This document shows, piece by piece, positions 10,401-44,040 of a DNA stretch of 64,000 bases. The stretch is from Halocafeteria seosinensis (taxonomy: Eukaryota), in the NCBI GenBank assembly GCA_001687465.1, contig LVLI01000229.1:1-64000 (forward strand). Reading direction: 5' to 3'. Numbering within the stretch: the stretch's first letter is position 1; the number at the start of each line of letters is the position of its first letter. A model generated the notes under the pieces. It worked only from the letters and a program-made list of their open reading frames with translations. It did not search any database and had not been told where the DNA came from. Made by a program: the position numbers and the translations under genes.

Positions 10401-12794
10401 GCTGAACCTTGCCGTGCATGATTGAAGAGTCGACCGACTTGCCTACAAACTTCTCCAATTTGTACTGCTCGGCCAGCAATTCTGCCAGTCTCTGCTCCGC
10501 CTGATGCGCTGTCTTCTTTAAATGAATGCGAGATGCCTTTATGCCTTCTATGGCTTTCTCTAACTTGTTTATGTCGTGCTGTGTCATTTGCATTCTGATT
10601 CGAAACTGCTTTCTCTTGAGCTCGCGCTTCTTCTGCGTTAGTTCACGTGCCGTGAGAAGCCAAGGTTCTCGGTTATCAACTGCGGCTGCAATTTCAGTCT
10701 CGTCCACTTCTTCTTTTCCGTCCATCGAGGAATCCAGGTGTAGATCTCCTTCTACGCCTTCAATGTCGCCATGCTCTTTGATCCACTTCTTCAGTTCGTG
10801 TTTAAGAATACCAATGTATTTTTTTCGTTCGAAACGTTGGTGAAATCCTTGATACATGACGTCTACAGTTCGCATGTCAGTGGCCCGTATCTTGGCCAGA
10901 TCATAGACGAGCTGTTGGCCACGATTGCCATCCAAAGTTCGCACATGGTCAATGTGACTAGATGGAGGACTGGTCTTCCCAGCCGAATTAACTGCCTTCA
11001 CTACGAATTTCGTAAAAGTGGTCGAGTAGGGAAGACCGTCCAGCTGTATCGAAGTAGTCTGACTCTCCTTTTGATGTTTTACTTCCCTTATAGAGTAGCT
11101 TCCACCTTCATTTAGCATATTGCTGAAGTCCACTTGTTCCTCTATATATTCGAGTATGTACTTTTCCACTTCCACTCCCCCACAGAACAATGGTTCAACC
11201 CAGCGTAAGTTTATTTTACTGAACGTCACACTGGTAGCCTCGAGATGTAGGGGTGGCGTAGGCTCGCTCGCTGGGTTTGTTGTTACACTGTCGAGTTCGT
11301 CACTCCACGGCGAATATCCTTTGATATTCAAAGAGCGCACTTTGAGCTTAACGTATTCAGTGTTGGCAGGTAAATCTCTGACAAGAAAGCCCGTGTGCGC
11401 TACTGGCATATTCATATACCAGCGCGAGGTTCCAATTATTTCAGGGCTGTTTGTGGTTTCTCTAACCAGAAGACCATGTTTGTCATAAGTTTTGACCTTG
11501 CGACATAACGAAATCTCGTACTCGTAGACTTCAGCACCACCGTCAAACACGGGAGGCTGCCATTTCAGGGAAAATGAATCCGAAGTGGTATTCACTATTT
11601 TAATGTTCGTTGGCGGGTAGGGAACAGTTGCATAGACGTCCATAATACGTTTGGTAGCGGTCATAGACCTTCCTTTCCTCCCTTTCAAAAGGCGGCAATC
11701 TCCGACATGGTTGTTAAAGCGAAAATTAGGAAAGAATTTGCTGCAGAAGGGGCATCGAAGACTCTCAGATGTAGCACTTTCTTTACCACTCTTTTTCTCG
11801 GTCACTTTTAATCCTTCTTTACTTATTTGGCTATGTTGTTGGGTGGGTTGAGGTCTGCTTGAACCCTCAGAGGATGATGTTTGTGTTTCGACCACACTTG
11901 CGGACAATCCAGCATTTGGTTCATCTTCGTCTGTGTCACTTTCCTCTTTTCTGCTTTCCTCCTCGGCAGTCTTTCGTGTGTACGCAAGTCCGTCGCAAGT
12001 CTTCACGTGTTGATCCAAGAATCCGGGCAGGAACTCGCGGTGGCATCGAGGACATTCGTCGTATCCTGCTTCATGCTTGTTCTTTTCCAGCTCTCTCAGT
12101 ATTAACTCAGTAGTTGTCGGTTCGGCAACCGGCTCGGCATTGAGGTCATTGCGCTTGTGTTCGCCACCATCTGTGTCATTGGTGGATCGCAGAAGCTTCC
12201 TCATATTGAGAATGCGAAACTCGAGGTCTCCGAGAGTATCTTGATGAAGTTTCCCATCAGTTGCTGTGTGACGGACATCGGAAGCCATTGATCTGTAAAG
12301 TACAACGGAGCTATCCGTTCAGTGTAGTCATTGTACTGCACACACACGTTTGTATAACTTACTCGAGCATGTCTTGCATTTTGAGATGCGACTTAATCTG
12401 TAGCACTCGTTCAATGCGCCTTACATAGCAAACTAAAGTTCGTTGTCAACGCACACATCATACATACCCTATCGTAAATGTGCTGGTCATTTTCCTTTAA
12501 CTTGATATACTCTAGCTTGTTCACTGCTGCGGTCCGGTTGGCATGCGGTGCGAAAAACTCTTCAAACTTTTTCAGGTCAAAGTTCTGTGCGCGCTTGTCG
12601 GACGCCTTCATTACTCCCAAAGATTTTGTTCCGCTTTGCCTGGGAGCTACAGATGCTGTATTGCCCTGCTTTTTACTTCCGTCGCGTTTAGAGCTCTTAA
12701 AAAGGTCCATAATGGCCTTCTCGGTCTTCTGAAAGTCCTGTTTCCCTCCTCCCCCATTCTCCTGACTTTGAGCTGAGTTCTTCGTATTATCCAT
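7411..12794 (-). CDS. Large multidomain protein: 2 C2HC zinc fingers, 2 FN3, coiled coil, TPR-like helices, WD40 repeats, C-terminal LysM; exons 12794-12468, 12397-12363, 12292-7411
   Basis: Zinc fingers CPRCHREF..LDQHVKTC and CPFCSKFF..NHVGDC. FN3 WQPPVFDGGAEVYEYEI and WVEPLFCGGVEVEKYILEY. WD40 GH...ITGSADNTIRVWD, VSGSTDATVCVWD, ASGSMDEDLRVW. LysM HIFGPRDTLSKLADEYGVTTNQLLEWN....FYVGMRVVV. Two short GT-AG introns join the 12411-12794 ORF in frame (IYDR|IKSHLKMQDMLE|SMASD). Confidence 0.85.
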
Positions 12795-13301: not shown

Positions 13302-14507
13302 TTAGCCCAAAGCCTTACGTTGACGAGCAGTATTCATATATGGACGTAGTACCCATTCAATCTCGGCTTCTGTTTGATCAAGTGTTCCCATCCTAACCTG
13401 ATATGGCATTATCTCAAAACGCGGACCTAATTCTTCCAGGTTTACTTCGGCTTTGGGACCTTCACCGCTCTTTGTAAATGTGTGATGCCGGAACGAAATA
13501 TAGTCGTTCTCGTTCGCAAATGTCATGACACGGGTTGCGTCCTGTTTTGGTACGGGGAAAAGATGTTTGAGAATATTCTGTATTCGTCCGCCTAACGATG
13601 TTTTAAAATTTTCGAATATTAAATGAGGATATTGTTCCGAGATCGTTCCCTGAGGTACAATAAAGACAGGTGCCGATGAATGAGGGTATTGACACTCCGT
13701 AACAAGGTAACGCTTCGCTTACCCTATTCTCGATATCGTGTCGTAACACACAGTTGGTCATCGAAAAATATGCTGTGGGCCCATACGGGAGATGGCTAAC
13801 TAGAAGCGCGTCTGGTTCTCCTCTTGTTTCTTGTACAACCACGATATCCGTAAATCCATGACGCTTGCAAACTTCTACTAACTGCAGAACACGATAATAC
13901 CACATATTCATCGTCGTCTGACGAATTCCATGTCTGTCCACAGTACTAACCTCCTTCATCGTTGTGGATCCTCTGTTGAGTCTCTGAGAGTTCGGAAACA
14001 ACAGTCGTACTTCCTGCAAACACCAAGCAGCGATCGTGGAGTCAGACATTTGAACCTTCATTCTGATAACGGCCCTTCCCGTGCAGATGCTTTCCCTACC
14101 TTGGCGAACTGCTTGAGTCGACTACTGGGGTCATGTGAAGTGGTGACGCACACCGAGGGATCATACATCCCTGCTTTAGCATATTCATCATCTATATCAT
14201 GCTGCATAAAGATAATCATCCCATCACAATGTAATGCAGTGCAATACTATCCCATTATATTCCAGGGATATTGAGTGAATAAAGGACTTACTTTCTGGCG
14301 CTTGGCGAGGACCGGGTCGTCTAATTCCATCTCCTTTTTCAGTTCATCGGCCTCGTTTCGCAGCTCAGTAGGGATCGGCTTCCCCGTCTGCAAGGCATGC
14401 TTTATTCTCTCTTTGCGCTCATACTTCTGCCTTTCCTTGCCTTCGAGGGACTTGCGAAACAAGTACTCCTTCTTCAACCTCTGGTTTCGGCGCATTGCTG
14501 CCGCCAT
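13302..14507 (-). CDS. IMP4: U3 snoRNP protein IMP4 (Brix domain), 5 exons
   Basis: RRNQRLKKEYLFRKSLE..GKPIPTELR; DDEYAKAG..DPSVCVTTSHDPSSRLKQFAK|EVRLLFPNSQRLNRG; ETRGEPDALLVSHLPYGPTAYF; TFANENDYISFRHH; ELGPRFE; EWVLRPYMNTARQR. Exons joined by GT-AG introns. Confidence 0.95.
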
Positions 14508-14750
14508 TTTCTCCAATGCAGCCCTCAAACACAGCCAATTATATGTATAGTTTCTCTCTCTACTTTATCGGTACTTTCCTACGGGCATCAAACGTACTGC
14601 GTCATGGAATTTCCATCATGGAACTCTGACTGACACTTCCGAAGCCTTGCTGGGCGTGGTCGGGCTCAGCGCCCGGTGCGCTCCGAGACAGGTATGTGCA
14701 AGTACCAGTAACTATGTACATATAATAGCATGGGTCTCGGGATCAAAAGG

Positions 14751-15790: not shown

Positions 15791-16797
15791 CATGGACACT
15801 CGGCTTCCTTTAGTGTAAATCCTTTCCTTGTTGCTGCGTATAGCCGTGCTCTTGGCATGCTGTCAGCACTCTTGCTGCTGTGGGTTCAGCGTCCCTTCCA
15901 GAGTCCGTGTAACTACTCTGCAACATTTTGCGCAGGTGTTTCTGTAGCTTCGGTTTGCTCCAGTAGCGTTCGTAGTTTGCATCCGCGAGTCCGATCGTTT
16001 CCTGTAGCGTGTTCTGACTCTCTGCGGACCATTGCGACGGTTTCTTGCGGTACTGTATTGCGCGAGCGGGTCCTGCTCATCTCCTGCCAGTTGGTGGATC
16101 GTTTTTGATGCGTCGACCGCCCCGACGATATGCGATGCTTCTGTTGCGCGGTCTGGGGTGAACCTACGCGGAAGCGGTCCAGCATCTTCACGTTGTAGCT
16201 TGAGCAGCAGGATACGTGTCAGATACGGTCAGGGCACTGTGGAAACATTTACATGTAGCTTTCGGGATTATAAAGCGGCAAGTGAGAAAAATGAGAGTAC
16301 CGGTAGGTATCGACAAAAGGTATTACATATTGCGAACGATTGCATGCCATTCGGACAAAGTGGTTTTAGATAGATTGGGTGGAAGAGCGGTATTCGTCGT
16401 GGGGAAACTCTACTGGACACTGGTTAGAAACATTTAGACTGTAGCATACACACGTCTTCGGCAGGAGCAATACTGTACACTACCAAATACGTACACACAA
16501 CAATGAACACGGAACCTACTTTGCTGGATTTAGCTGATCCCACAATGGCATCATAACTTCCAAGTTCCTACCGACGATGTCAGCACCACCAAAACGCAGC
16601 TCTTGTATTCTCCCCCGGCTACTCGCAATCGACCGTCGTCACGGGATCGTGATCCTAGCCCAGCAACTTCAATGAATTCCTATCGAACCCACAAATACTG
16701 CTCTATCTGCTATTCGGTGGGAATCCGTGGGATTGATTGTGTGTGCAGCAAAGGCTCAGCTCCATTTATTTCTTCTTGTATTTTCCCCACATATACC

Positions 16798-19700
16798 ATG
16801 TCGGCTCCGTCTCGTCATGTCCACCATGGTCGGCGGCAGCGACGAGCCTCTCTGCCCCACACACCCCTCTCCCAGCAGCAGCAGGAGGCTACTGTGCATT
16901 ATTTGCCTCCACGCGTGTCCACAGCAGAAGGTACGGGCTCAGTCAAATCCTTTCCTCCCCCTTGATATCAGGTCTACCTATGTCTGTGTGTATGTGTGTG
17001 TGTGCCTGTATCCAGCCACGGCCTTGGAGCGAGCGCAAACTTCTCCCGGGCCTGGGAGTGGGAGTGGGACTGGAATTCCACAGCCAGGAGAGTTGTACAA
17101 GGACTTTTCCGGGTCCTATACTAGTACCTCCTTTCCTCATGAGCCACAAGAGCAGCAGCAACAGCAACAGCCAGCGGAGCACCATAAGACAGGAGGGGTT
17201 GGATTCCTTCCTCGGGATGCGTCGGGACAAGCTCGCTCGATACAAGGCGTACGCTACGAGGATGCCTCGTTACAGTACTACGGGAGTATACCCCGAGTTT
17301 TTAATCGGGGAAGCTGTCCGACCCAGGTTCCACTAACGACGGGTGATTCGGCCTTGTTTTTCTCGGACCAAGTAGGAGCTGCGTTGGGGTGTGATGGAAT
17401 CTTGTCCGATGACTGTGGGGTCTGTCCACCCTGGAGCTCCCCTTTCTACACGGCATTCACTTTATTTTCGGCTATCGATGATGATATACCCCCTCGCTTC
17501 TTTGATGAATCGCAGGGCCAACTGAGCTCCCATATCGCAAAACAACACTGCCATTTAACCCAATGGCCACGCTTGCTGGCCAAGCAACTGCAATCCAAGA
17601 TTACCACGATGAACACCGACGACATTAAGAGGCTGTTGGTTGCAACTCTTGATTCTGAAGCTGCTATCACTTCATTGTATATCGGATTTGAACCGTATGT
17701 TTTAGAGCGCTATAGCCAGTTGGCCAATGATGATGAAGCATCTCTGGTGCTTTGCGCCACACGCGACAAAGGAGCTGTTGAAGCAGACCCCCGAGCGGAA
17801 CACATCAATGACCAACTTGCATTTGTGCGGGATGCTAAATCCCCTGATTATCGGTTCACGCAGTGGTACAAAAACGCAAAGGTCCAGGACTCAGGGGTCT
17901 GGTCGGAACCACTCACGAACGGCTCGAGCGACGCCTTAACAATATACTACTCCGTCCCTATTCGGGCTGATGGAATATTCGTTGGAGTAATTTCGATGAT
18001 GCTAAGCATGCACATGAACAGTGAAACGTTACATGCACAGGTTGCGACGCCCGAGATTTCAAGCTCCGAATATGGGTTGACAGGAAAACAAGCCGCGGAA
18101 CACTCGCAACGGCAGCTGGACAAATTAACCACTGGTCCTCGCAAACTTGCAGAGTCCCTCTCACGCAATACTCTCTTCCGTGCCAATGATGATGCATCGA
18201 CCAAGGCAAAACGGCTGGCGGCATCTCTTAACGCCATTCTTGGGGACGAGGAAAAGCTCTTTGGTGCTTGCGTCGCTTTTGCGCCTGGTGTATTTGAGAG
18301 ACATGATAAGCAGTCCTTTTACGCTTGCAAGCAATGTGCAAGCGAGAACACTGTAGGGGAATCGTCAGACTGTAAATCCGGGGCCCTTGTTAGTGACGAA
18401 GAGGATAGAGTCCTACCACAGGTGCTAATTTTGCCATCGGAAGGCAAAACAGAATACAATGTCGGTGAAGACAAAAGAGATGATCAGGCTGCCTCCTCAC
18501 CTTTGACTGCACGATTTGGAGGTATTCGCTATCCTACTATCGCAGACCTCCCGGAAGAGAGCAACAGCTTCCCTGTCGAACCATTACAATATGATTACAC
18601 TGCAAATGAATGGTACGATGCTACCCGAAGGGAGTGCAAAGATCACTGGAGTAAACCGTACTTCGATGAGGGTGGAGGAAACACCTGGATGATTACGTAT
18701 AGCGTTCCGTTCTTTACAACCGAATCTGAAGCAAGTGATAATGATGACGACGATGATTTTGACTTTGCAGGAGTTGTTACCATTGACTTGCTGTACGACG
18801 GTGACATGAAACGGTTGTTCTCTCCTGGTTCTAAAGCAGATCAGAACTCTGTTACCTGCTTTTCCTGTGGACTTCCTTGTGATCACGCCTATTGGACGCC
18901 AAAGTCGAAGTTAGCTCAATCTTCTATTTGTCAACGCTGCGTCCATAAAGGTCTACTACCACGGAACAGTCGATACAAGGACCTCCAATTCGTGGCAGAC
19001 AAGGCTTGGTATGAATGGTGGCAGCGTGTAAGATCTCCTGGCCGCAAAATACGCTTTGGGCAAAAGGTACAACTTCGCCATAAATCAAGTGGAGAAATCC
19101 TATGTGTGAAACTAGATGATGGAAGCTCGCATGGTAGCTTCGTCAAAGGCGATATAGAGGATGCAGATGGCCGTTTGTTGAAAACTGATACGGTACAGTT
19201 GTATCAGGTTACCACAGACAGCGGTAGAGATCCCTACATGGAAGGAAGCATTGACTCATGGTTCTCTATTGAGTCACCTGACCGGCAACATGGGGAACCT
19301 GTTACGTGGGGTGACCAAATTGAACTAATCTCTGTACGTTGGAATTTCCCCTTGGCCATATCTGTTAGTCAGCAAAGGGCGAGGTCGCTGTTTACTTCCT
19401 CAATCAACACGTCTCTTGATGAAGTGGTAATGCGGAAGTGGAGAGTCATTCCGTTTGCTCGTAGGGCATCAGTGGATGGGGACATTGTTCGTTCACTAAG
19501 GCAACAGGTAGATGAGCAAGGTTCATCCGGTAAATTGCTACTTCAACCTGATATTAAACGGAAACTTATAAGTGTTCGACTTGGAATTGCTTGCGGAACA
19601 GGGTTCGGCATTGGCCCAGAGCTTAGCAACCCGTCTACTGTCCGACTTGTTCAAGCGGATCCTCTTGCGGATGAAGGAGCAGTTTCTTCGATGAAGAGAG

Positions 19701-22700
19701 ATGTTTTCAGACCTTCGCGTGTTCTGGAGCTTGAGCATAATGCATCAATGAATGAAAGCGCCTCGTCGGAGGAACACTATGGAGCGGGCAAATATGGAAC
19801 TGCTGATTCATTGGGGATTGCCTCTCTGCTTGGTCGCGCGGAAAAAATGTATTTGCAAGGCGGATGCGTTGTGCGTCTTTCCGTGAATGTGGATTCTGTA
19901 TGTTCCAGTCGAAATCCTAGGAAAAGTCAAGATGACCTCTTGTGCGGGGACTATCCACGTCAGGTTGGAGACTCTGTGGTGGGTCAGAAACGAGTATACA
20001 TTAGCACATCTAGCGCCTCCCAATCTAGCAATGTCAATCTTTCCGCAAGTCAAGTGCTCCAAATCGCCGACTCGGAACGAGAAAATAACGCTGATCGAAG
20101 GTTCACCAAGGTTACAAGCTATCTCGCTGACAATCTGGATGCAAGTTGTTCGCTAGATTCCCTTTGGCTGGTTCAACCTAGTTCCGGTGGAGGAGGTGCC
20201 CTACGACCTGGTGATGGATTTTACCTGTTTCATTTGGCTACTCGTCGCTATCTCGCTGTAAATTGGGAGGACGCAAAAGACTATACAGTCTCCGGTTGCG
20301 AAGGTACATGGCTTGAGGATATGCAGAAACTTTCTCTTGTTGGGGACATCGAGACCGGCATCCCCCTTGAGTCACGTAATGCTGCACCACTGTCACTTGT
20401 TCCTTCAGTTGCCGAAGCAACAATTTTTTGTGCTCAGCGAAGCTGTTACGTAGATCCGACTGAAGGAAAAGGCGGAGAAGAAACTGATGTGTCGTCGGAC
20501 TATTTTGCCCGTTTAAAAGGGTTTAGGTCCAGCTCGAAATCTTTATTTGGTGCCTCTGAACAACGGCGACAAAGCCGTAGCCGGCGTGATTTGGACGACC
20601 AAGACGTTGATGTGGAAGGACAAATGCAATTTACTAGTGAAGATCACTCTCCAATTGAAGTTCAAGAGAGGTTCTTTCTGCAATGTTTGGTCCCATTGAG
20701 TTCTCAACTCTCAGCCTCAAGCAAATTTTGGGTAGGGATGGTAACACCTGAAGCGCTGAAGACTGAGGTACATGAAATGGAACATCAGGCTGAGATGGAG
20801 AGCAGTCGAAAGAGTGATACTGCGTTTAGTCGTATTTCGACCCGGATTAAATCCCTAATCACTGCGGCTTCAGCATCGAAAAGAATGGGTATATTCCGTA
20901 ACGCCGATCTCAGTGCTGGCTTTAGGGCTGAAATTGTAGGTGGGTATGCATCCGTTGATTCTAGAAGGGTTAGCGCGCACATTCATCACCTGTTGGCATC
21001 CGCTACTGAAATACATGCTGCTATTGGAAATGTTGGAGCACCCGATGAGCAACCACTTGTTGAGAAGCTACCGGAAACGGACGGAGAAACGAGTGATTCA
21101 TCCGATGAAGATGCAGCCGACAAGCGAAATACCTCTAAGATCAGTGATTATCAAAAGACTGGTAAAGTACATCTATCAATGTCGAACTTGAGTCATACAC
21201 ATCTCCTGTCACTCTTGAGCAGCGTCTTGCACGTGACTCGGTTTTTGCAAGGAGCGTGTATTGATCATAGCGAAATTGAATCGTTAACCTTTTCAGCAGA
21301 GGGGCAATATTCTCGCGACATTGACAACGTAAAGCAACAATGTAGGCTATCAAAACAGTATACAGCTGAGGCTATCACCTCTCGTCTGGAAGGTATTGTC
21401 GCAGACAATAGCGACCTTGAAGGCCCACAAAGCTGGTGGAATGAAATTGTTTTCCCGAGTGGAACTATGACAGAAGAAGATGAAGATCTGGAAGATGATA
21501 GCGACACTGAAGACGAGCAAACGGCTACCGGATCTGTTACAGACACCAAGACAGGAACCGGAACGCACAATGATAGCCATTCTGGGCATTCTAGCTTTGC
21601 AGAAGAGATAGGAGAGGGGAGTGCACTCAATTTGAACCCGTGTAACACCAGACATCATCGGCAAGCATTGGTTTGGCAGGGCCGTGGTGTGGATGTCATA
21701 ATGCATTCGCTTAAAGCATGTATGAACATCCGCAGGTTGTTCAGCATACCTCATAAAGTGAATCATCAGAGTGAGGTAGTGGAGGCTGCCTCCACGGTCG
21801 CTGTACTGGCACTCGCACGAAAAGTAGCCGCTGTGAACATGTATTGTTTATATCTTCTCCTCCTAGACCACCGACAGGCATGCATAACGACAAGTGCGTA
21901 TTTCGACAAGCTATTGCAATGGGCGTGTATGCGACGGACGCAGGGCCGACCAAATACAGCAGATTTGGTGATCTCGAAAGACCTGGATGCGCATCAAGAT
22001 CATGCGTTGGCTTACTTGGCGTCGGTTATCGTGGAGATAGTTCTGATGACGTATCGTGTCAGTCTCACGGATGTACCCCTACGGCACGTATCCTTATTGG
22101 GTTTCGTCGCTCGCCGTTCGGTCCAGCCCCCGCTGCCCCCTCGTCTGATTCAATTGCTTAGCAAAATCGTTTGTCGTGAGATAGAAACGCAGAGTAAAGG
22201 TGTTGAGAAGCAGCAGGGTACGCGAGAGGCCGAAGTTTTGGATGATGTTGCAGATTACGCTCCTGTTCCTTCGAACCAGTGGGCTGTTAGCATACATTTC
22301 TTACTTCAAGATAACGCCGCAGTGGTACGGGGTTTGCTTCATCCTGACGCACCTATCTGGCACCATCTGGAAATTACACAGCCTCCTACTCCTGAACAAT
22401 TGCGGCGTGTCCGAGTCAAAGACTCGCGGACAAAAAAATATCGCCATGTTGGAGTTGACTCTTTGGTAAGCGTGCTCCAACTCTGTTGTCGGTTGTGTAT
22501 GGGAGCAGCGGGTGTAATTGTCCGGCGAGTATTGGAAGTGCTCGGAGGATGTACCTTTGATCGCCTGATCCACATTGCGTTCGACGAAACGTTGACAGGT
22601 CAACTGTATAGAGTGAGAAGCCAGTGCTGTCATCTTCTTCGTGTCATGTATATTGAGCCGCACGTTATCAAGCACCGGAATATCCCTGGCAATAGCGGTA

Positions 22701-25700
22701 CCGGAGTTTGCGCTGGAGCTGTGACGAACTTATGCGCAAGCATTCCTGGGGTTGACGCCGGTCTGTCGGCCATTGCATTTCCGCAATATGGATCTGATAT
22801 TATAACAGACTCGTGTGAATCTTCCCTTGGTCCCCCAGAAGCTGCGCATCTCTTGAAGCCTGGGATAATGCGGACTATGTCATTCTGGAAACGTGACTGT
22901 TTGTACACTTTGTCGGAAGAAGAAGCATTCTTCAGCGGTGACAATGCAACCTACTTTCGCCAGGAGAGTCTTTTGGAAGTCCTAATAGACAAATGCACCA
23001 GAGATTTGGGGTTGAAGAAGACTTCCGAGATTGTCAGTGCCTTGAATGCAGACTCTGTGGGGATCAGTGACCATACCGTTTATGTTCGCAAAGACGTACC
23101 TCACAATGCGGACGTACCGGTAGATGTATTGGGGGACTGTGGTGTACCAAAACTAGCAGAAACTCAAGTACAGGGAGTAATCCGACATGTGAACATGTAT
23201 CTCGATCGATGCACTGCCCTTTCCTCCAAGAATGAACTCAGCCTTGGAGTTTTGACTCTAGCTTCAGCCATGATACGTCGCGGGGCTCTCACACCGCGGC
23301 AGATTTGCTCTGTGATACCGAACCTGCTAAAGCTTATTGTTGCCGAACAGCAGCGTGATGCATTCTCTTCCGATTGGCAATGGCGAACCGATAAGAAGCT
23401 ACTGCTGCGACTGAAGTTGCGTAGTTGTACGTTGCTGCATACTGTTTGTGACTATGCCACGGCTCATAAAGTGCAACAGTGCGTGGACTATTTCTCTGGG
23501 AAGTTTAGTGACCTGGTGGAACGGAAGGGCTACGATGAGTTCTTTACAGCAATTAGTGCTATCTACGCCCCATCAGAGAATAGCAATCAGGATTTTGAAA
23601 TCATTGAAAGGATGTGTAATCACGACTGGTTTAACAAGGCTTTGGACTCTTGTCAAGCCTCTGAACTTCTTCGGGAAGCTGTTAATCGTGTATCATGGTC
23701 CCCGCTGCTCAAGCTGACTGTTTCCCTACTACGTCGACTGAAAAGCCGACCGTCTGAAGTATTTAAAGCGTTTCGAGACGCTAGCATCCTTTATAGTGGT
23801 GCTGAGTACCGCTTTGCCGTTGAAATTGGATCTATTGCGTGGAGATTGAACGGGATCACATTGTTGGAGCGCACCAGCTCGGAACCTGGCGAGGTTCATG
23901 TCAGTCGTGCGAAGGAAGTTACAAACGCAGCGGCAATGCTGGTACGGAGACTGAGGCTCGTGTTTGGTGCACATGAAAGCTACGGGATCTCCAGGAAACG
24001 AGCCATCGATATATTTCTGGCCTCGAATTGCGTGGATGTTATCATTGGACTCTCAAAGATTCCGTTGAAAGTGGTTTTGCATGCATATGATCTTGGGGTG
24101 CATTCTACAAGTACCTCACCACAAGAGCATCCAATGATGAAAGTGCTGAGGCAAACCTACGCTCTACTCTACAGCCTTGCCAGAACACGTGACCCTACTA
24201 TTTTGACCATGCTTCGCCCCCACATCAACTCGTTCCTGCGTTATCAAGGTTCTTCCGTTGGAACTATGGAGCTGATCATTGAGCTAGTAAAAGGGTGCCG
24301 TGGCGCGTGTGATCTTGTTGACACGGCCCACATTGACACTACACTAGTAAGCTTATCGCAAGTCTCTACATCGATATCCGCTAAAGTGATGTTAATCAGG
24401 TTCCTGAGGTCACTTATGGTCGACATATCGACTGAAGAAGATGGAGATACATCTGGGTCAGTGATCAGCCACAGGAACAAAGAACTAGTTATCCACGGAC
24501 TATGTTCCGGAAAAGCTCAAACCTCATCGGCATCAGGAGATATGCGATTCGGCGCGGAGATTGAGAAAGAAGGACATAGTTTACAAACTGAATCTTGGGC
24601 AACGCTCCGTACCCTGGCTTTCATCCGTTCCAAGATTGGTTTACTATACTTCCTTGGAGAGATAGATGCTGTCTGCCAACCGAACCGACTGCTGGGGAGC
24701 ATCCATTCCTGGTACAGGAAAGACTTCGACGTCAATGCATTGCGAATCAAAGCAGGAAGGGCAGTCCGAAGGCTAAGGTCATACGTTGCATCCGGTTGCG
24801 CTCAAAGTCTTCTTGAATCTATGCCTGAAGGGGAATCGGCTTATTATATGTACGAACTGGAACTGAGCTTGGGGAAATCAAACACGGAAAGAACCCAAAT
24901 GGACTTCTACAAGCGACTTCTGCAGACTATATCTGACTCCCAACAGAACTATACGAAGCAGCACTCACACAATACTGTCGATGAGACCACCCTAGTCATT
25001 CGATCAGCTCTTCCATGGGATGGGATTCTGAGTTGTGTTCTATCGGTGACCTCTTTTTCTCTGAAGTCTAAGTTCCTGCGCTTTCTCTGGGCTGTTTGGG
25101 GCGATAAACTCCCATATGTTAGTACAGAAGGTCTGCAAGCCTCAGTCGTGCTAAACGGAAGCACTGATACCGTTTATGAATACCTGAGTTCCGAAAAAGG
25201 ATTTCCACATCCTGAAACACAACTTCCAGTTCTGGGGCTGTCGACAACCCGAGATTGCACCCCCTTGAGCTTGCTCGCTAATGAGGCCATTGGGGCTGGG
25301 CTCTTATGGCTGCACATATTGGCGGACCCGTTTATTGAGCAGAATATGCATGTCGAGCTTGCACAACCGGTTACCCAAAGTATATGCATCGCTCTTGTTG
25401 GAAGGCAAAATGTCTCAGATCGTGCAACGGAACTGCCACAAGAGCTTGAAAGGTTATCTTGCAGCATGGACTTTGTAGAGTTAACGACACCACCGGAGGC
25501 CGAAATCGCGCTGCGGGGATCCTTGTCTTCCATCCTGAATTGCTATGCCAACAATACCTCGCAGGGCGATTTTCAGAGGCGAACACTTTTGAGTGGAAGG
25601 TCGTCGGGTCTTATAAGAAACAAGTATGAATTGCAGGTTCTGGTGGAGTCCTTGAAGGAAATGTTGTTTGATGTCACCCTTCCCCTTCTTCTTGAAATGC

Positions 25701-28700
25701 TGAGCTCGTCGAATGAAACCCTCCTGCGCCAGACAGAAAGCACAGAGAATGCATCTTCGTTGTTGTTTGCTGTGTTGTGCTCCTTTGCCGACATTATACT
25801 AGCTGTCAGGTCGGCGCATCCGAATTGGTTGCATGCAGGTCACCCCAAAAGAAACAATAACCCAAAAGCGGCATTATCAGAAATGGGAGAAGAGGTGGTA
25901 AACTGTCTCTCTACAGAACAAATAAGGACCGTTTCAAGCATGATTGCGTACCTCTACGATCCAAGAGGCTCATCGCAACCTTCCGGAGTAGATTTGGAGA
26001 ATGTTCGCGAGCAGTACGAGATCGCGAAATTAGATTCGATGCTCCTAGGATGCCGTATACCACGCAGGTTCATGGATGTGAGTCGTCTCCTTGGTAACTT
26101 GTCGGAATATGTTATAAAATCAAAGGAAGTGACCGATGTAGAAGCGAAGATGGAACCGACCCACGGAGAGATTTGTAGCGCTGATGGAGTTCGTTATCGA
26201 TACTCGAAGGGAGTAAAGGAATTTTCTGGTGGTACTCTAGACGCTCCTACAGGAGTGATAGAAGATCCGGTTCACAGAGACACTCCCGGTACAAAGGCCG
26301 ATGAGCACTTGGTAAAATGGATCCCTGGGTGTGCGGTGCAGTCCCTTAAGCAACGATATATGTCAATTGTCGTTGCTTTCCTAAACCAATCCAAGCCATT
26401 AATTGAAACCATAAATTACCAGCCACATGATCTTGCTATGTCGCTGTGCAATAGCGTGTCCATTTTAGCTGGAACTGATTCCGCTGCCAATGATTGCTGC
26501 GACGAAGTGATGAGGAAGATTATCGTTCTGCTGATTAACGACGCATTCAAAGCAGAGGCGGCCATACAGAGCAGAGGCCGAAACCGAAGGATGGATTCAT
26601 ACCCTTGCGCCAGTCGAGCTTCTTGCTGGCTTCTGGATGCCCCGTACGTTGTCTCTTCATTTTTGCATGCTTTTCTCGTAATTGGAGAAGAAGATGGCGG
26701 ACAAAGACGGCTGTGTAACTTGGGTATCCCCCAGTTAGTTGTGGTGTTGTTGAATTACCTCGGTAGCTTTTATACAGTAAAAGAATCAGAGGGAAGCAGC
26801 CGATCGAAACATTCCGCACCGATTCAGCCAGCTGCGGCCGTTGGCGGAAGTGATGTTATTAGTGTTTGTCTGGAACTGGGTGGTCTTGTTTTATCTGAGG
26901 GCTATTTGCCGGCACAGCACAGGCTTCTAGAAGCTTACAAGGCGACACGAAGCTCGGCTTTCCTCGCAGCAATCAATAAAATGATTGAAGGATTTGAGGA
27001 TACGTTATCGGTTCCGTCAAAGTCGTCTGAGTTGATTGGTGTTTCTGAAGCTTTGGTGGCAAGTGCAGACAATTCCTCTACCCATGCTTCTGTGCGTTTG
27101 CAGGTGTTCAATACTGCTAAAGAAAACACCCTGGACGAAGGATCCCACACTCTCGGTGAAACTAGCAGTGACCTCATGCGCTGGAAGGAAGTGGAAAACT
27201 TGCTGTGTTTTATTCAACAGATGTGCGAGGGTCATATGCGGCGCTGGCAAGATGAATTACGTGAACAAGTAGAGTTTGTTGTCCAACACAATGTGGTTGA
27301 ACAGATTATCGACTTCTTGCATAGCTTGGTCGCCAATGGCGGCCCGCTTTGGCAGGTAATGGTCTACTGGGATGCAAAATTTGAGCCGGCGGTGATTTCC
27401 CAGGTGATGAAGGCTTTCGTTCAAATAGTTGCCACAATAACCGAGGTTACGCAAGGCCCCTGTGTAGGCAATCAGCATCAACTCAGTCGGTCGCGACTAT
27501 TTGAAGCCGTCGGGTGGATTTGGCATGCCATAGTATTTGCATGCTCGCATAGTGACAAGCAATTGGTGTACGGCAGCTGGGGAGCACTAGATGGTAGTGA
27601 GCCTCGGTTTGCTTCTGAAAATGGGGACAGGAGCATTGGCATAGTCGAATCTCTTTGGGAAGAAATCGATAATGCCATCCAGGATGTCAAAGAAAATGAT
27701 CAAGAAGACCCCGATTTTGACCTGAACTCCTTGCCCAGAAAATCAATTATGATGTTCCTGCAGGACCAAATCATTGAGTGTCTAAGCGCAATTTTAGAAG
27801 GTGATGCTCGACCGTACGCAGTACGAATGATTCAATTGCTGGATCTTCAGTATATTCCTCAGTTGATCAAATTGGTGCTTCGTGAAGGAGAGGCTCAAGA
27901 TAAATGTTTCCCTGTGGGCAAAGAACTATCTATCAGCTACGAACGCGAACGAATTTCAGATGGAATGTGGGACGGTCGATTTGCAGAACTGGATTTATGT
28001 TGCAAGTACATGGTATTTGTCAAAAGGATAAGTATTCGGATTGGTATCGGTGCGGACCTTGCCATAGACGAAATCTTAAACAGAGCTAGCGAAGGTGCGA
28101 CGGCTTCCGCTGGGGACGACCAAGGCTCCAAAACGACGGATGAAAACCACCTACTTACTATGCTTGCGAAAGTTGAAGAGCAGTTCGACCATGGAACTCA
28201 GGCAATACTAAGAATGTTGGCGGACCCTGAAGTGCAGCGTCTTCAGCGCTTGTGTAACCGGCATGTCACTCAAGTCGAGGTTCAAAGCCCCAGTGGCGCA
28301 TTGGTTCCATTCGTTTTCCGGGTGCCACCTGTGGTATTGCGCCATCGCCAAGATGCTGACTTCCGTGAGAAACGAGAGAATGTACTGTTTAGTGTCTCAC
28401 GGGATAGTCCGTTTTCCCGCATGGAAGACTTCATTAGCGAGTGTCCGGGGCTTGTCTTCGAGCTGACCTCCTATCCGCGCCTCAGAATGTGCAGCCTCGT
28501 GCGGCACGTTCAATTTTTCCTCGATTTGACGTTTGTCCTTGCTCTCATGATCAATGCTTGCCTGCTAGCCTCCGAGTCGCATTTGAACGAGTGGGCCCCC
28601 CGCATTTTGATATGGCCAATGGAGGGGCTAGTACTGCCGCTGGGCTGGATGCATGCTATTGCATCCTTGCTCAGATTCGCTTCAGTCTTAGTCCGGAAAG

Positions 28701-29827
28701 CTCCGGCGTGGCTAAATCAGCGGAGTGACGATGAGGAAACCTCGTTAGAGATAAACATAAAAGATCAGGACAAAGATGATGAAAGTTCTAGAGGTGAATG
28801 GAACGCTGACGATGAGGAAGATCACCGGGCGGGCGCCGTAGGCAGTCGTTACCTTCCTGTTGTCAAGAAGATTACGGCATCAACGCTCTCTGATCCTCAG
28901 GCTGGATTCACGTTTGTCTACGCTTTGTCAAGCTTGCTGGCGGTGTCCCTTGGACGGCCTGCGTTGTACTCGATTCATTTGTTTGACCTCATTTCTAGAT
29001 CGGCACTTCTGCGGGAAACTATATCTGCTTTAAAGGAATATAGCTACTCATTGCTCGCTACTGGGACTCTTTGGCTTCTGCTCATGTGAGTACCATTTAA
29101 CTTATGCTCTCTCTTTAGATTCTCAAATTTTAGTCACACTGTCCCTGCAGGTATACTTTTGCACTGGTTGGATTTACATTCTTCAACGAAGACTTCCCTG
29201 AAGGCGAATGTGCCACTTTGTTTGACTGCGTGGCATTTACGCTGAATTTTGGCATGGTATGCTCATAGTAGCTCTCACCCTGTTATGCACAGTCTAACAC
29301 TTTGCCTTTTTTGCGCGTGTGTTCAGAGAGCCGGTGGGGGACTTGGAGATGTGCTGGATGGTGGTGACGGCAAGTCGCATGGGATCGGTCGGGCATTATT
29401 CGACGTCAGCTATTTTGTACTAATCACGGTAGTTATGCTGGCTATCGTGACCGGAGTTATAATTGGTATGTTTCCACCAGGTTCATCTTTCAGTGTGAGA
29501 ATGTAGATACTCGACTTTCGGGTCGCGTTTGCAGATGCGTTCGGCGCGAGTAGAGACCATCGGAATGCAGTACACGAAAATCAAAAGAACTTTTGCTTCA
29601 TTTGCGGACTGGAGAGCAGTAGGTTTGATCGCCTAGGTCGTGGGTTTGGCTTCCATTGCCGGAATGAGCACAATATGTGGGGATATGTTTACGCAATGAC
29701 ATACCTAAAGGTGAAAGATGACACTAGTTACACAGGGTTGGAATCTTACCTGGCGGACCAGATGCAGTCGGGGGCATTAGAAATCTTCCCCATTGGACGT
29801 GCAACCGCCGCGCCAAAGATTTCTTGA
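16798..29827 (+). CDS. ITPR: IP3-receptor/ryanodine-receptor-family Ca2+ release channel with N-terminal tandem Cache-like domains; exons ~16798-16930, 17016-29085, 29151-29256, 29328-29466, 29535-29827
   Basis: MIR-like motifs GQKVQLRHKSSGEILCV and SLWLVQP...GDGFYLFHLATRRYL. RIH-associated LCFIQQMCEGH..WQDELREQ...TITEVTQGPCVGNQ. Six TM segments. Spliced pore NFGM|RAGGGLGDVL, TM6 LAIVTGVII|DAFG, C-terminal CFICGL...FD...F..HCRNEHNMWGY...YTGLESY...IFPIGRA. Introns are GT-AG and keep frame. Confidence 0.9.
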
Positions 29828-32096: not shown

Positions 32097-33066
32097 CGGT
32101 TTTTTCCTTTGTACCACAAGTTGATTACTGTAGATCAAGTGATATCGTTTTAATACACACATTGCTCCTTATCAACATCCAAATTCTGTACCAACTCGAC
32201 CGTCAGGTGTAATACAAGTAAAGTGTAAACTTTAAAGTCGAGCTATCCCAAACAAAGAAACAATATAGATACATGTGTAGTACATTGTGTACATGATATC
32301 ATTGTATGCTGGCTACTGAAAATACCCTTCTTACAGTACAGTGTACTGTTATTACCCGTTTTCTTTCTCTCCTCAATCAAGCCATAGATACACGCCCGAA
32401 CGCTACAGACGGACGTACATGTTTTCTGTATCTGATGTTGGAATGCCCTGCCTAAGAATTACTTACCCCAAGAAGGAAGGTTGTACAAAAATTTCCGCCC
32501 TGTTCACTTCCACGTGTACGTCTCCATGCTTTTGTACACGTATCTCAAACAATGAATGTAGGACTCAACTGTTGCTCGAGATATTATTTCACATTGCTCG
32601 AGCAGGCCTATAGCGATGAACACACACACACACTACCCTGTAGACGCCAGGCCGTTAACTGTGGCCATTGCAGTTGTGGAAGAAGAGCAAGCAATCGTCG
32701 ACTTACCTGGATACTGATACACACAAATGCAAAACAGTTTTTCGATACAAAAAAGAGAAGAATGTAAAGTGTCTCTAAAGCTATTCAGCACTACATCATT
32801 TCCCTCTTTCCTACAACAGGAAGTACCTTTTTTATTATTTTTTTCTTAAGTTTTACACTTCTCGAAAGACTGTGCGGTTGAACATCCGACGGGCCGGCGG
32901 CGACGGCAGCCGAAACCATGTACAAAAAAGGTCCACAGGGGGATTCCAGGGGGAGGAGGCATCGTCATTTGAATTATGGAGTCCAGTGCTCTCTGTGGCT
33001 CAGAGTTTGATAGCACAGAGGTCATTTTCACATTCAGATGACATTAGAATATACTCAGGAATAAAA

Positions 33067-35841
33067 ATGATGATGGTAACGAACTCGAGTGTGCGTCGAA
33101 ACATGCTAATGGAGCCTGCATCTTGCTCCAAAGAGGAGGAAGCGTCGGCTCCTCCAGGGTCTGTACACGCCAAATGCCCTGTTTCTCAGGCGAATCAGGG
33201 TCCTACCGAGTCCATACAGGCTCAACACGGCCTCTCCAGTACCCAGTCGAGCGAGCAAGCGTACCACTACCCTCTGTTATCGTCTCGGCCTTTCCTGACG
33301 GACATGACGGGGGCCGTGACCTCCTCCATTGTACAGTCTCAATTAGCCCAATTGTTGATGGAAATGAGCTCAGATACCGAAGGGGATACATCCCACAACA
33401 GTACGTCGTTTTCTGCTTCAACGGCGACCGCATCCGTGGAGGAAGCCACGAAATCTGAGAAAGAGAATGCGGTGGAGAGTGTGAAACAGAGCACAACTAC
33501 CAATTATCATCCACCCGACACTTTGGAAGACGCAGGAGGCTCCACGGAGAAGAATGGTGGTGGAAATGTAGTGCCTTCAGGATCCTCGGCGCTTGGGACG
33601 GCCGCCGCGGCGAGTGAGAAGAGTGGAGAGGGACCGAATGAAGACGAGGAGCACAGGATCCTGGAATGTATGCTATCCTCAATGCGAGAAATTGCATATC
33701 GAGCGATGGAAAATTGTCACTTTCGTCGGAGTACGCTGGACGATTCTATTCTCAGAGAGGGATCGGCTTTGAGACGAGTACTCCACGGACGCAAAGCTGA
33801 GACAGTTTTATCTCATGCGGCGCGATTAGATCCTCAACAAATCGAAAAATTCTCCGGTGCAAGACCAAATGATGGACTCCAAGGGACAGATGTGGATGCT
33901 AATTCTTCGCAAGGCGACATTGAGCAGATGATTGAAGCTATCGTTGAATCGACAAACTTATCCAAGAATACTGCAAGAGAATTGCTTATGGCAGGGACTA
34001 CAACAGGCTCCAGTAGCCACCAAACAACCACCAACCCGCGCAAGAGTACGAGAGCTGCAGCCCGCAAAGCAGCAGCCTCTTCTTTGACAGGAGGTAGTAT
34101 ATCAAACTCCGATGCTAATGTTGCCACCGAAGTTAGCACTGAGACGGTGCAGGCCGCTTCGGAGTCCTACAGTCAAATACAATATAGCAACACCAGCAGT
34201 GTCTACGACATTGCCGGAAATGCTCCTACGCTGATCAATAGCCAGGACGCGAACCACTCAGCGTTTGGACGAGTCAACAGCACGGGGACATATAACGGAA
34301 ATCTGGGCAACATAACCGGTTCTCAGTCCACGCACTTTGATATTGACGATGCTGAGGGGCCTTTCACTAACAGCGACATGCCAGGTGGTAACTTGCATCC
34401 GTCTCAGAGCTCTTTCGCATCGCTAACTAGCGTTCGAAGCTCTGGAATGGACAATGGGCTCCATTATGGTACTGATGACGGACATGAACTATCGCAATCC
34501 CAACGCAGCGACTTTAGATACGAAGCTTTAATGGAACCTGAAGCATCACAACAAAGTGATGATTTATCAGCAAACGTAGACGAAGACTACGATCTATCAC
34601 ATATAAATTCTCCGGGGGATAATGGCGGGGCAAGTGAACGAAGAAGCACACTTAGCCCTTCTGTATATGAAGCAGCATCACTACTACGCATTCAGCAACA
34701 GCGCACCCCACATGGCCTTACACCTAACGGCGCCCTCTCAGCTTCATCGTCTGGAGAAAAAAGGCACGGGTATTCAAACAGCCCGGACGACCAAAGCTCG
34801 CGAAGACGGTCTGAGTTCACCGACCCGTCGGATGCGTATCTCTTTGACGATGATTCCAATACGAATGCTTCGAGAGGAAACAAGCGCGGAAACTCAAAGA
34901 AACAGGAAAAAAAGTCAACCTCGTCCAAAAGAACTGCGGCCAAAAAACGGAAGAATCCCGCAAGTGGGGCAGGTTCTGAGGGTGGAGCGTCTGGGGATGA
35001 ATCCAGTCTGAATAATGATAGCACAAGCAAGAAATCTGGACAAAAACGAGGTAGGAAACAGAAGGAAACTAAGCCAGCAAATAAAACCACTTCAACCAGT
35101 GATGGCAACGAGAGCAAGAACGAAGATGAACCGAGAAAGGTGAGCCGTTATTTGGGGGTCAGTTGGATCCGCGCTACGGAGAAATGGAGAGCTGACAGTG
35201 TCGTTAATGGGAAACTTCAGTACTTGGGTTGTTACGACACCGAAAGACAGGCCGCTCAAGCTGTCGATAAAGCCCGGGTTAAAGGCTGGGACGGAAAGTC
35301 GAAGATACGTCTTAATTTCCCCGAAGAGCACCCTGAAGTTACCACTGCTACTCCTGCTGTAAAACAAGCCCGTGGTACCTCGAAATTTGTCGGTGTTTCA
35401 TGGGATGTCAAACTTAAAAAGTGGAAAGCTAGGATCGTCCTTGATGGCAGACATGAAAGGATAGGACTTTTTGACTCGGAAGAAGAAGCAGCCAGGGCTG
35501 TGGATAAGAGCAAAGTAGAGAACTGGGATGGGTCGACCATGCCACGTCTGAATTTTCCAGAAGAGTATAACCTTCCTCACGGTAAGGGTTCCCAAGCAGC
35601 ATTGGTGAAGACAGCAGTTGAACATGGTTTGAATATTCCGAAAGTCCGAGGAAAGAAAAACCAGCAAGTTGTGGAGGAAGCTACCCGTTCTACTGGGGCC
35701 GCGGAATTTCCCAATGACGCATCATCTTCTCGCAGTACGGGAACTAAACGTAGTCAACGGCAAAGCCGCAAACGCAAGAATGCTAGCGCCTCTGCCACCG
35801 CTGATGACTCTGATGATTTCCTCCACGATCCTTCCGAGTAA
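33067..35841 (+). CDS. Double AP2/ERF-domain transcription factor with long low-complexity N-terminus
   Basis: SRYLGVSWIRATEKWRA....GKLQYLGCYDTERQAAQAVD...LNFP (~35143-35325) and SKFVGVSWDVKLKKWKARI...RIGLFDSEEEAARAVD...LNFP (~35380-35560). Basic NLS-like tracts. Start codon uncertain (ORF open from 32872). Confidence 0.9.
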   Translation: MMMVTNSSVRRNMLMEPASCSKEEEASAPPGSVHAKCPVSQANQGPTESIQAQHGLSSTQSSEQAYHYPLLSSRPFLTDMTGAVTSSIVQSQLAQLLMEMSSDTEGDTSHNSTSFSASTATASVEEATKSEKENAVESVKQSTTTNYHPPDTLEDAGGSTEKNGGGNVVPSGSSALGTAAAASEKSGEGPNEDEEHRILECMLSSMREIAYRAMENCHFRRSTLDDSILREGSALRRVLHGRKAETVLSHAARLDPQQIEKFSGARPNDGLQGTDVDANSSQGDIEQMIEAIVESTNLSKNTARELLMAGTTTGSSSHQTTTNPRKSTRAAARKAAASSLTGGSISNSDANVATEVSTETVQAASESYSQIQYSNTSSVYDIAGNAPTLINSQDANHSAFGRVNSTGTYNGNLGNITGSQSTHFDIDDAEGPFTNSDMPGGNLHPSQSSFASLTSVRSSGMDNGLHYGTDDGHELSQSQRSDFRYEALMEPEASQQSDDLSANVDEDYDLSHINSPGDNGGASERRSTLSPSVYEAASLLRIQQQRTPHGLTPNGALSASSSGEKRHGYSNSPDDQSSRRRSEFTDPSDAYLFDDDSNTNASRGNKRGNSKKQEKKSTSSKRTAAKKRKNPASGAGSEGGASGDESSLNNDSTSKKSGQKRGRKQKETKPANKTTSTSDGNESKNEDEPRKVSRYLGVSWIRATEKWRADSVVNGKLQYLGCYDTERQAAQAVDKARVKGWDGKSKIRLNFPEEHPEVTTATPAVKQARGTSKFVGVSWDVKLKKWKARIVLDGRHERIGLFDSEEEAARAVDKSKVENWDGSTMPRLNFPEEYNLPHGKGSQAALVKTAVEHGLNIPKVRGKKNQQVVEEATRSTGAAEFPNDASSSRSTGTKRSQRQSRKRKNASASATADDSDDFLHDPSE

Positions 35842-41306: not shown

Positions 41307-41671
41307 GGGCCATCGGTCACACCTTCGTCGACGTCGTAGTACAAGTAGCTGTCCAACGCCTTGGTTTCCTGTGGCTTTGGGAGAAAACCCTTATTTAATT
41401 AACAAGCACCTGTTCTGGTTTCTGACTTGTCCGTCAATACTGTACTCTCTATATATACAACTTCTGTAGTTTCAGAAAACGCTGTGCAGCACACAAGCGG
41501 AAAACATCCCAACCACTGTCACCGGAAGCCCTGTTCAGAGTTTTGGCAGATTTCCCGACTTCGTTTTCTTAGGCCTTTGCTGCCGAAATGCCGGTTTTGT
41601 GCAGATCTTGGTGGTGAACACCACTACCCTTGACGGCCTTCACTCAAAGGTCGGAGGTAGAGTTTTACACA

Positions 41672-43077: not shown

Positions 43078-44040
43078 CTGTTGTGGCTTCCTCAGAGTCT
43101 GGGCTTTCGCTACCTCTGGGACGCTTTCACTGGAACATTCTACAGAAGTCATCAGCTAAATAGACAAAATATTTCCCAAATACCTGCTTCAAGGGTGCGT
43201 CTACTGTACGTGGTGTGTTTGTCTCGTTTACCTTGCTTCTCTACCGGATCATCTTCATGGCTTCCAGGTTTGCCTACTGTAGTTGACGCCGCTCATCTTT
43301 CTTTTTCTCTTCTTTTTCCTGTTTACTACTGAGCAAATTAATAAATCCGATCGAGTACGTCACTTTCCCGGATCTACTGTACATGTCTTCCGTCAAGTGT
43401 ATCAATTTTATTACCTCGTACCTCCAGTTTTACCAACAGCCAAATATTTTGCCCCTTGGGATCCAAGTCGATTCCGGGATTCATTGGGGATTCCCTGATT
43501 CCTGCTCACAGGGTATTATTACCTTTGAACAATCAGCAGAGAAACATACCGTATCCACGAGTCCTCCGAGCCCTCCACAACGGTGAAGTAGTAGCTCCAT
43601 GTCTCATCATATCTACTCGCTCCTTAAAGAGACAAATTTGACTGGCCAGGTCACCAGTACCGGTTCCACCTGGCAGTGCGGTCTGCAGAACAAAGTTTGT
43701 ACAAGACCTTGTTTGCAGAACGAGAACTGAAGAAAAGAGTGCCCATGGAACGCCACTCCTATACTTGCTGTATGCTGTAACATACGTGTTTTACTACGTG
43801 ACATGTCATGTGTGGGTGCCCAGCCTTCAACCCGCTTACCACCAGGTGGTAAGGTGAGTAGTACGGTCAAACCTGTTTGTATTGTCCGTGTGTGTTTCCC
43901 ATGTTGAAGTTGCTAAAGGCTATAGTCTTTATTACCTGTGGAATCCATGGGAGACTTGTTGCGTCTGTCTGTCTGCCCAATGAGTGAGTGAGTGAGTGAC
44001 GTACGTAAAAACGTAAGGTACTCGTCCTTTGATTCTTGGC

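Follow-up and report, generated by a model that had tools for sequence, protein, structure and literature searches.

A window of 64,000 nucleotides from the eukaryote Halocafeteria seosinensis (contig LVLI01000229.1 of assembly GCA_001687465.1, positions 1 to 64,000 of the forward strand) was analysed. Between positions 16798 and 29827 of the plus strand it carries a gene for a channel of the family that comprises the inositol 1,4,5-trisphosphate (IP3) receptors (IP3R; ITPR1-3) and the ryanodine receptors (RyR), in which two PDC/Cache modules are present; the combination is conserved. This variant of the family is real and conserved, has apparently not been described before, and comes with a testable ligand hypothesis. 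The sequence suggests that the protein may be a Ca2+-release channel controlled by a cytosolic ligand, in which a small primary amine (ethanolamine-like) bound at the second module would tune or trigger opening, replacing IP3. We give this reading a probability of about 0.5.

Two PDC domains predicted to lie within the suppressor domain

The profile MCP-like_PDC_1 (PF22673) matches the translated gene twice above its cut-off (17480-18049, E 1.9e-12; 18050-18820, E 1.3e-16). When the structure model was compared with 48,161 chains using VIA-align, module 1 (model residues 89-251) and module 2 (from residue 268) were recovered as separate PDC domains. The best Foldseek matches of the N-terminal model are bacterial and archaeal dCache sensor domains, the closest solved sequence is that of Shewanella HK1S-Z6 (3LIC, E 1e-7), and a search of the ESM Atlas returned bacterial PDC clusters alone, at 0.85 or below. 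An earlier note on this DNA, made from the letters alone, had described an IP3R/RyR-family channel with two such modules; translation and Pfam bear out the channel and the positions of the modules, and Pfam, Foldseek and VIA-align agree on a PDC/Cache fold, with its N-terminal helices, for both. The same note had taken the modules for dCache_1-type sensors. The PDC fold stands, but the canonical dCache_1 layout (a distal plus a proximal unit between two transmembrane (TM) helices) does not, as the dCache_1 profile gives a partial match at E 0.003 and no TM helices flank the modules. Instead, these are two tandem membrane-distal-type PDC units. The features of this region, all on the plus strand, are as follows.

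17324-17476, +, N-terminal strands of the suppressor domain (β-trefoil 1, RyR domain A), model residues 22-72
17525-18013, +, PDC/Cache module 1 (PF22673; Z 17.5 to 3LI8 over model residues 93-251), pocket degenerate in the window protein
18062-18796, +, PDC/Cache module 2 (PF22673; Z 15.6 to 3LIC), amine-type pocket intact, with acidic loop insertions
18857-18940, +, putative CxxC...CxxC zinc finger closing the insert, from sequence and Cys conservation
19043-19465, +, C-terminal part of the suppressor-domain β-trefoil, from VIA-align, aligning to ITPR2 at about 100-175

The modules had been placed ahead of the channel body; the AlphaFold model and VIA-align put them inside its first β-trefoil instead. 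The model covers the residues encoded by 17261-19480 and was built from a 14-row alignment (mean predicted local distance difference test (pLDDT) 66, predicted template modelling score (pTM) 0.41). Residues 21 to 732 superpose on residues 4 to 224 of the IP3R3 suppressor domain 3JRR (Z 13.6, root-mean-square deviation 4.3, 183 aligned), and residues 22 to 735 superpose on residues 11 to 230 of RyR2 (Z 14.7, deviation 2.9, 145 aligned). Trefoil-like strands precede module 1 in the window protein and in its relatives. Independently of the model, the Ins145_P3_rec profile picks up at its position 91-97 just past the insert in the relatives P0005, P0003 and P0153; in the window protein this profile matches at E 5.9e-5, just under the cut-off. 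Because the model strands on both sides align to one suppressor domain, and because Ins145_P3_rec resumes after the insert, the insertion is placed within β-trefoil 1. The insert (PDC, PDC and CxxC..CxxC finger; about 520 amino acids) is predicted to replace or extend the helical arm of this trefoil. The name "arm" and its bounds are those we presume for this element, and a literature search for the term gave nothing.

All four finger cysteines are kept in P0001, P0002, P0004 and P0168, and they are degenerate in P0155, P0005 and P0153. The putative finger has no significant match in Pfam or the PDB, the best PDB match being the Ssr1 finger (E 1.2). A cytosolic location of the modules, with nothing hydrophobic before them, had also been proposed, and is supported: residues 1-900 contain no hydrophobic segment (maximum Kyte-Doolittle value 1.48). 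As the domain that holds the modules is cytosolic and all TM segments come after them, they should be cytosolic whichever start codon is used.

The ligand pocket

In CqsR of V. cholerae, ethanolamine is held by W151, Y169, D171, T196 and D198 (PMC12410723; this and the other articles with PMC numbers are cited for the portions of their text that were available). Equivalent positions were fixed by alignment of the CqsR chain to a family module (E 6e-7), outside of which lie the lid residues W105, F123 and W138. Module 2 of the window protein has all five residues (W577, Y593, D595, T633 and D635 in the numbering of the spliced model). The five are also complete in five of the seven full-column relatives and in 63 of the 70 bacterial domains sampled. 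In contrast, module 1 of the window protein keeps one of the five, the Trp; the pocket hallmark that had been claimed for both modules is thus full in module 2 alone. The module 1 pocket is degenerate in four of ten rows (window, P0001, P0002, Perkinsus) and intact in the other six. Judging from these residues, module 1 of the window protein is probably not a working sensor; in this species it likely serves as a spacer, and in relatives as a second site.

Pocket loss of this kind raises the possibility that the insert has a structural or docking role, or is a relic in decay, and that the channel is gated by Ca2+ and partner proteins only. In P0002 and Perkinsus both modules are altered with the fold retained, and in IP3R1 the arm region makes contacts (PMC9663519). 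This explanation is opposed by the five pocket residues, which are kept even though the proteins share just 22-36% identity pairwise, while neighbouring loops vary freely. This pattern fits selection on the ligand pocket, and we regard the structural or relic explanation as unlikely.

Which ligand module 2 might bind was considered by comparison with defined dCache classes. A carboxylate-binding Arg is part of the dCache_1AA amino-acid motif (PMC8915833). The motif, YxxxxRxW...Y...D, is absent from both modules, where the Arg position is taken by N (module 2) or T (module 1), and the Arg is missing from seven of the eight related module-2 rows. The dCache_1AM residues, as defined from PctD, are R103, D133, W155, F188, M215, S217 and D235 (PMC10589655). 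Module 2 keeps the aromatic residue, M, T and D, has A at the W155 position and has no match for the R103/D133 pair, so that the dCache_1AM definition does not apply. By definition, then, module 2 is neither AA nor AM; its sequence resembles an ammonium-binding platform that lacks a carboxylate site. The CqsR-type 2-amino-alcohol pocket is the one that module 2 matches at all five mapped residues.

It is conceivable that the channel is truly controlled by module 2 as a sensor, and that the ligand is something other than a small primary amine (e.g., a pyrimidine, a polyamine or an unknown metabolite). Pockets of the dCache_1UR and of the dCache_1AM type are close relatives that can be converted into each other (PMC12415202), W155, R103 and D133 of dCache_1AM are unmatched here, and no ligand is assigned to the 3LIC-like subfamily in the literature covered. 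We consider this slightly more doubtful than the structural explanation above, given that every mapped CqsR residue is kept, including the T-x-D platform that binds the amine and the hydroxyl.

Channel body and the IP3 site

Beyond the suppressor domain the protein continues as a channel of IP3R/RyR type, with these features.

19850-22000, +, putative second β-trefoil (MIR) and first helical repeat, equivalent to the IP3-binding core, from a MIR match at 20099-20269 and by-eye motif mapping
27188-27511, +, RIH_assoc domain with the Ca2+-site motifs CEGH and TEVTQGPC, from Pfam (E 6e-20) and motif alignment
28514-29827, +, six-TM channel domain (exons ...-29085, 29151-29256, 29327-29465 and 29535-29827), from splice joints, Ion_trans and translation

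The N-terminal β-trefoil (suppressor domain or domain A) is recovered across the insert (VIA-align Z 13.6-14.7). MIR falls just short of its cut-off (E 1.6e-5) and RYDR_ITPR gives no match in Pfam. The RIH_assoc domain keeps the Ca2+-site glutamates in CEGH and TExxQGP, and equivalents of the Ca2+-site residues E1978, E2042 and Q2045 of IP3R1 (PMC9663519) are present. In a downstream exon, Ion_trans matches 29246-29503 (E 1.4e-6). The spliced translation yields a six-TM pore with the filter GGGLGD (family form GGGxGD), GVIID in S6, a C2H2 finger (CFICG...H...HNMW) and a short RyR-like tail. The protein ends about 10 residues past the last conserved motif and lacks the long C-terminal tail of IP3R type. 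In full-length profile searches it is about equidistant from RyR (E 1e-65) and IP3R (E 4e-60). With either the entire protein or parts of it as query, Pfam gave no match to SPRY or the RyR repeat, even at E as high as 1.

The residues that bind IP3 are T267, R269, R504, K508, R511, Y567, R568 and K569 (PMC9663519). In the window protein, by-eye anchoring on ITPR2, as opposed to a computed pairwise alignment, puts S, A, H, A, W, H, R and Q at these positions, so that one of eight is identical. No basic residues are conserved at these positions among seven aligned proteins. The AlphaFold model of the IP3-binding core has a pLDDT of 44 and no Foldseek match at E ≤0.001, and phmmer with this region finds non-significant RyR matches only.

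These results bear on whether the channel is still gated by IP3, with the modules merely tuning IP3 sensitivity via the suppressor domain. That domain sets IP3 affinity (PMC9663519), a putative MIR and following helical domain occur, and the mapping of the IP3 site was done by eye. We nonetheless find IP3 gating improbable, as about seven of the eight ligands are changed, conserved basic residues are missing from their positions, and the IP3R-type C-terminal tail is gone.

Relatives and phylogeny

When the module region was searched against long proteins, 2,975 candidates yielded four matches, all with PF22673 and RIH_assoc, and further searches added P0005, P0153 and P0018. The Cache plus ITPR architecture, for which the earlier note had proposed a search of protist proteomes, is found elsewhere: seven clusters besides the window protein share the tandem-PDC and RIH_assoc layout, and four of them carry Ion_trans in the same open reading frame (ORF). 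By annotation, the P0018 cluster is from Perkinsus olseni; its longest members have two PDC matches and a weak, incomplete RIH_assoc (E 0.001-0.19). P0168, also from Perkinsus olseni, is far shorter between trefoil and RIH_assoc, seems to lack a recognisable MIR, and has gene models that lack pore exons. About 10 short fragments bear the same modules, with no channel link shown. A search of metagenome contigs for related loci gave 27 pattern matches, none of which was confirmed.

Among the 150 matches listed of 403 at E ≤0.001, most of those outside the family look bacterial. Fourteen non-family sensor proteins were scanned and found to be phosphatases, kinases or dCache fragments. A separate group (P0014, P0022, P0035, P0047, P0056, P0060 and others) consists of stand-alone single-PDC bacterial proteins of about 175 amino acids with the W/Y/D/T/D pocket; many have signal-peptide or lipoprotein-like N-termini, and they may be soluble amine-binding proteins. 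P0017 and P0068 are bacterial Ser/Thr kinases with a C-terminal PDC domain, and have a "PLYRxWxWY"-type motif in common with module 1 of the eukaryotic family; the module tree does not resolve them as sisters of module 1.

This tree has 89 rows and 141 columns, with 71 of 133 non-family domains sampled. Modules 1 and 2 form separate clades among bacterial domains (support 95 for module 1, including the family fragment P0019, and 86 for module 2, which excludes Perkinsus). One acquisition followed by duplication is not rejected (approximately unbiased test, p-AU 0.71, with the Perkinsus rows left out), and no donor can be named from the tree. The channel-domain tree (10 rows, with long branches) does not resolve monophyly (53/61).

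Gene model and transcript contigs

Most of the gene is contained in a stop-free ORF of 4,137 codons (16676-29089, plus strand). The spliced model gives a protein of 4,246 amino acids with its stop at 29827, and uses three introns joined by contigs together with a putative first exon. The three introns (29086-29150, 29257-29326 and 29466-29534) are of GT-AG type and are joined by contigs from three of four public runs (X2-X4). X2-X4, which come from two samples of one study, are taken as RNA-derived solely because their contigs join introns, there being no RNA record. The ORFs of P0001 and P0002 end at the same intron position as that of the window gene. Upstream parts of the model are as follows.

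16798-16930, +, putative first exon, from ATG 16798, low-complexity and free of a signal peptide; from sequence
16931-17015, +, putative first intron of 85 nucleotides, GT-AG, from sequence; fits the open 4,246-residue model
17016-29085, +, long coding exon inside the ORF, with the two sensor modules and the channel as far as TM5

One X4 contig reads unspliced through 16907-17082, and first exon and intron stay putative; the in-frame ATGs at 16817 and 16826 are other possible starts. A candidate intron at 19173 was dismissed, because the strand encoded there is kept in relatives.

The fusion could be an assembly or annotation artefact that joins bacterial DNA to a protist channel gene. At low depth, contigs of X2-X4 take in most of the sensor region, none of those listed spans the whole gene, and gaps among them fall at 18422-18516 and 19173-19232. 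The only gene-spanning contig is from X1, possibly the window's own source. Against this, the region is a single ORF, the GC content of the modules (0.48-0.49) is matched by that of the gene body (0.47-0.49), one X2 contig (18517-19172) bridges module 2 and the trefoil strands that follow, the modules interrupt a domain, and the layout recurs in the seven other clusters. An artefact is therefore very hard to credit.

How the channel may work

If a cytosolic amine does control this channel, we envisage a tetramer on an internal membrane that would be permeable to Ca2+ and co-activated by it, as the kept pore and Ca2+-site residues suggest, and that would have lost IP3 binding. Closure of the module 2 pocket on its ligand would pull the suppressor domain at the arm position and so shift gating. 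In IP3R1, residues 75-85 of β-trefoil 1 touch ARM2 of the neighbouring subunit, and this interface rearranges on activation (PMC9663519). Because of this contact the insert would be well placed to transmit pocket closure, which could be passed from the arm position to the ring of N-terminal domains.

Several points weigh against amine control. Pockets have decayed repeatedly: in P0002 and Perkinsus this holds for both modules, and in the window protein and P0001 for module 1. Decay in several lineages implies that ligand binding is not needed in every member, and is the chief argument that sensing is not a universal role. The match to CqsR concerns the five mapped residues, to which the lid residues do not belong, the specificity of dCache pockets changes with few substitutions (PMC12415202), and no physiological ligand of 3LIC is given in the literature covered. 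Loss of most IP3 ligands is no more than moderately supported, as the mapping is by eye and the model of the core is of low confidence, and for oomycete IP3Rs, which also lack the IP3 ligands, a response to IP3 has still been argued (PMC9694693). In Perkinsus the gene models end ahead of any TM region. Finally, the low-confidence model of the N-terminal region does not fix the predicted orientation of the modules relative to the trefoil.

Comparison with known systems

With IP3 receptors the window protein shares a suppressor β-trefoil that is predicted to be complete although split, RIH_assoc, glutamates of the Ca2+ site, the GGGxGD filter and a C2H2 finger, along with a MIR-like region that scores just under the Pfam cut-off. 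Unlike ITPR1-3, it has an insert of about 520 residues (PDC-PDC-finger) at the arm position, appears by eye to have lost most IP3 ligands, is about 4,250 residues long and has no long tail. With RyR1-3 it shares a similar size, the short tail, the domain A fold and the profile match at E 1e-65, but it lacks Pfam matches to SPRY and the RyR repeat and has the PDC inserts.

The PDC fold links the modules to the dCache sensor of CqsR (9NIA) and to HK1S-Z6 (3LIC), and module 2 keeps the five CqsR residues. However, CqsR and 3LIC are periplasmic distal-plus-proximal dCache domains that signal through a TM helix to kinases, whereas the window protein has two distal-type units in a cytosolic channel domain. 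The eukaryotic dCache_1AA proteins α2δ and CACHD1 also are Cache domains acting on a eukaryotic Ca2+ channel. They differ in being extracellular accessory subunits with a VWA insert and the amino-acid motif (PMC8915833); in the window protein there is no VWA match and no Arg of the AA motif, and the sensor is within the pore-forming chain. According to the part of Gumerov 2022 that is available (PMC8915833), every eukaryotic dCache_1 protein found carries a VWA insert, which the window family lacks. Oomycete ITPR homologues are protist IP3R-like channels with added domains and poor conservation of the IP3 site (PMC7399828, PMC9694693). Their additions are ankyrin or VirB10-like, and the word "Cache" is absent from the main text of both articles, as far as that text was available.

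No description of a Cache/PDC insert in an IP3R or RyR was found in the literature searched by title or abstract, a scope outside of which most subscription journals lie; to this extent the earlier suggestion that the architecture is undescribed holds, apparently. The available portion of Upadhyay 2016 names no such channel, and the supplements of PMC8915833 and part of those of PMC4822843 contain no match for Perkinsus or for IP3R domain names.

Other genes in the window

An intron-split Brix-domain (IMP4-like) gene (13603-14564, minus strand) lies upstream of the channel gene. Also on the minus strand are a 1,635-residue ORF (7411-12318) with FN3, TPR and WD40 repeats and, by eye, a possible LysM-like C-terminal end, and an 894-residue ORF (38706-41390) with glycine-rich GLUG-like repeats by eye, a Ser/Thr/Pro tail and no Pfam match at E 0.01. 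On the plus strand, a 1,020-residue ORF (32779-35841) has two C-terminal AP2 domains. The 1,679-residue ORF at 44017-49056 (plus strand) has an N-terminal third of multi-TM appearance and the C-terminal motif CKSAKDRT (CX5R); its organisation resembles that of a 7TM-inositol phosphatase (INPP4-type) fusion, and the only Pfam match is to Y_phosphatase3 at E 0.02. An ankyrin-like gene of 33-residue repeats is found at 58800-60200 (plus strand), where, because of the repeat, two further frames, one per strand, are open for more than 330 codons.

Implications

It is possible, at somewhat less than even odds, that an old branch of protist IP3R/RyR channels, reaching at least the alveolates (Perkinsus), gave up IP3 in favour of a pocket of bacterial chemoreceptor origin, grafted into the suppressor domain, and so became an intracellular amine-gated Ca2+-release channel. 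Protist IP3R-like channels often lack the IP3-binding residues and their agonists are unknown; the window family is a concrete candidate answer for one branch of them, in the form of a small soluble domain whose class of ligand is predicted. It would be a Cache sensor in the cytosolic side of a pore-forming Ca2+ channel, apart from the extracellular, VWA-containing α2δ/CACHD1 line. The natural insertion also points to the arm of the suppressor domain as a place where about 500 residues are tolerated and which may be coupled to gating, a matter of interest for allostery in IP3R and RyR and for the engineering of ligand-gated Ca2+ release. A homologue occurs in the shellfish parasite Perkinsus olseni. 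If amine control is true, these organisms would have a one-protein chemosensor that directly yields a Ca2+ signal from a cytosolic metabolite (for instance ethanolamine, derived from prey or from the turnover of lipids).

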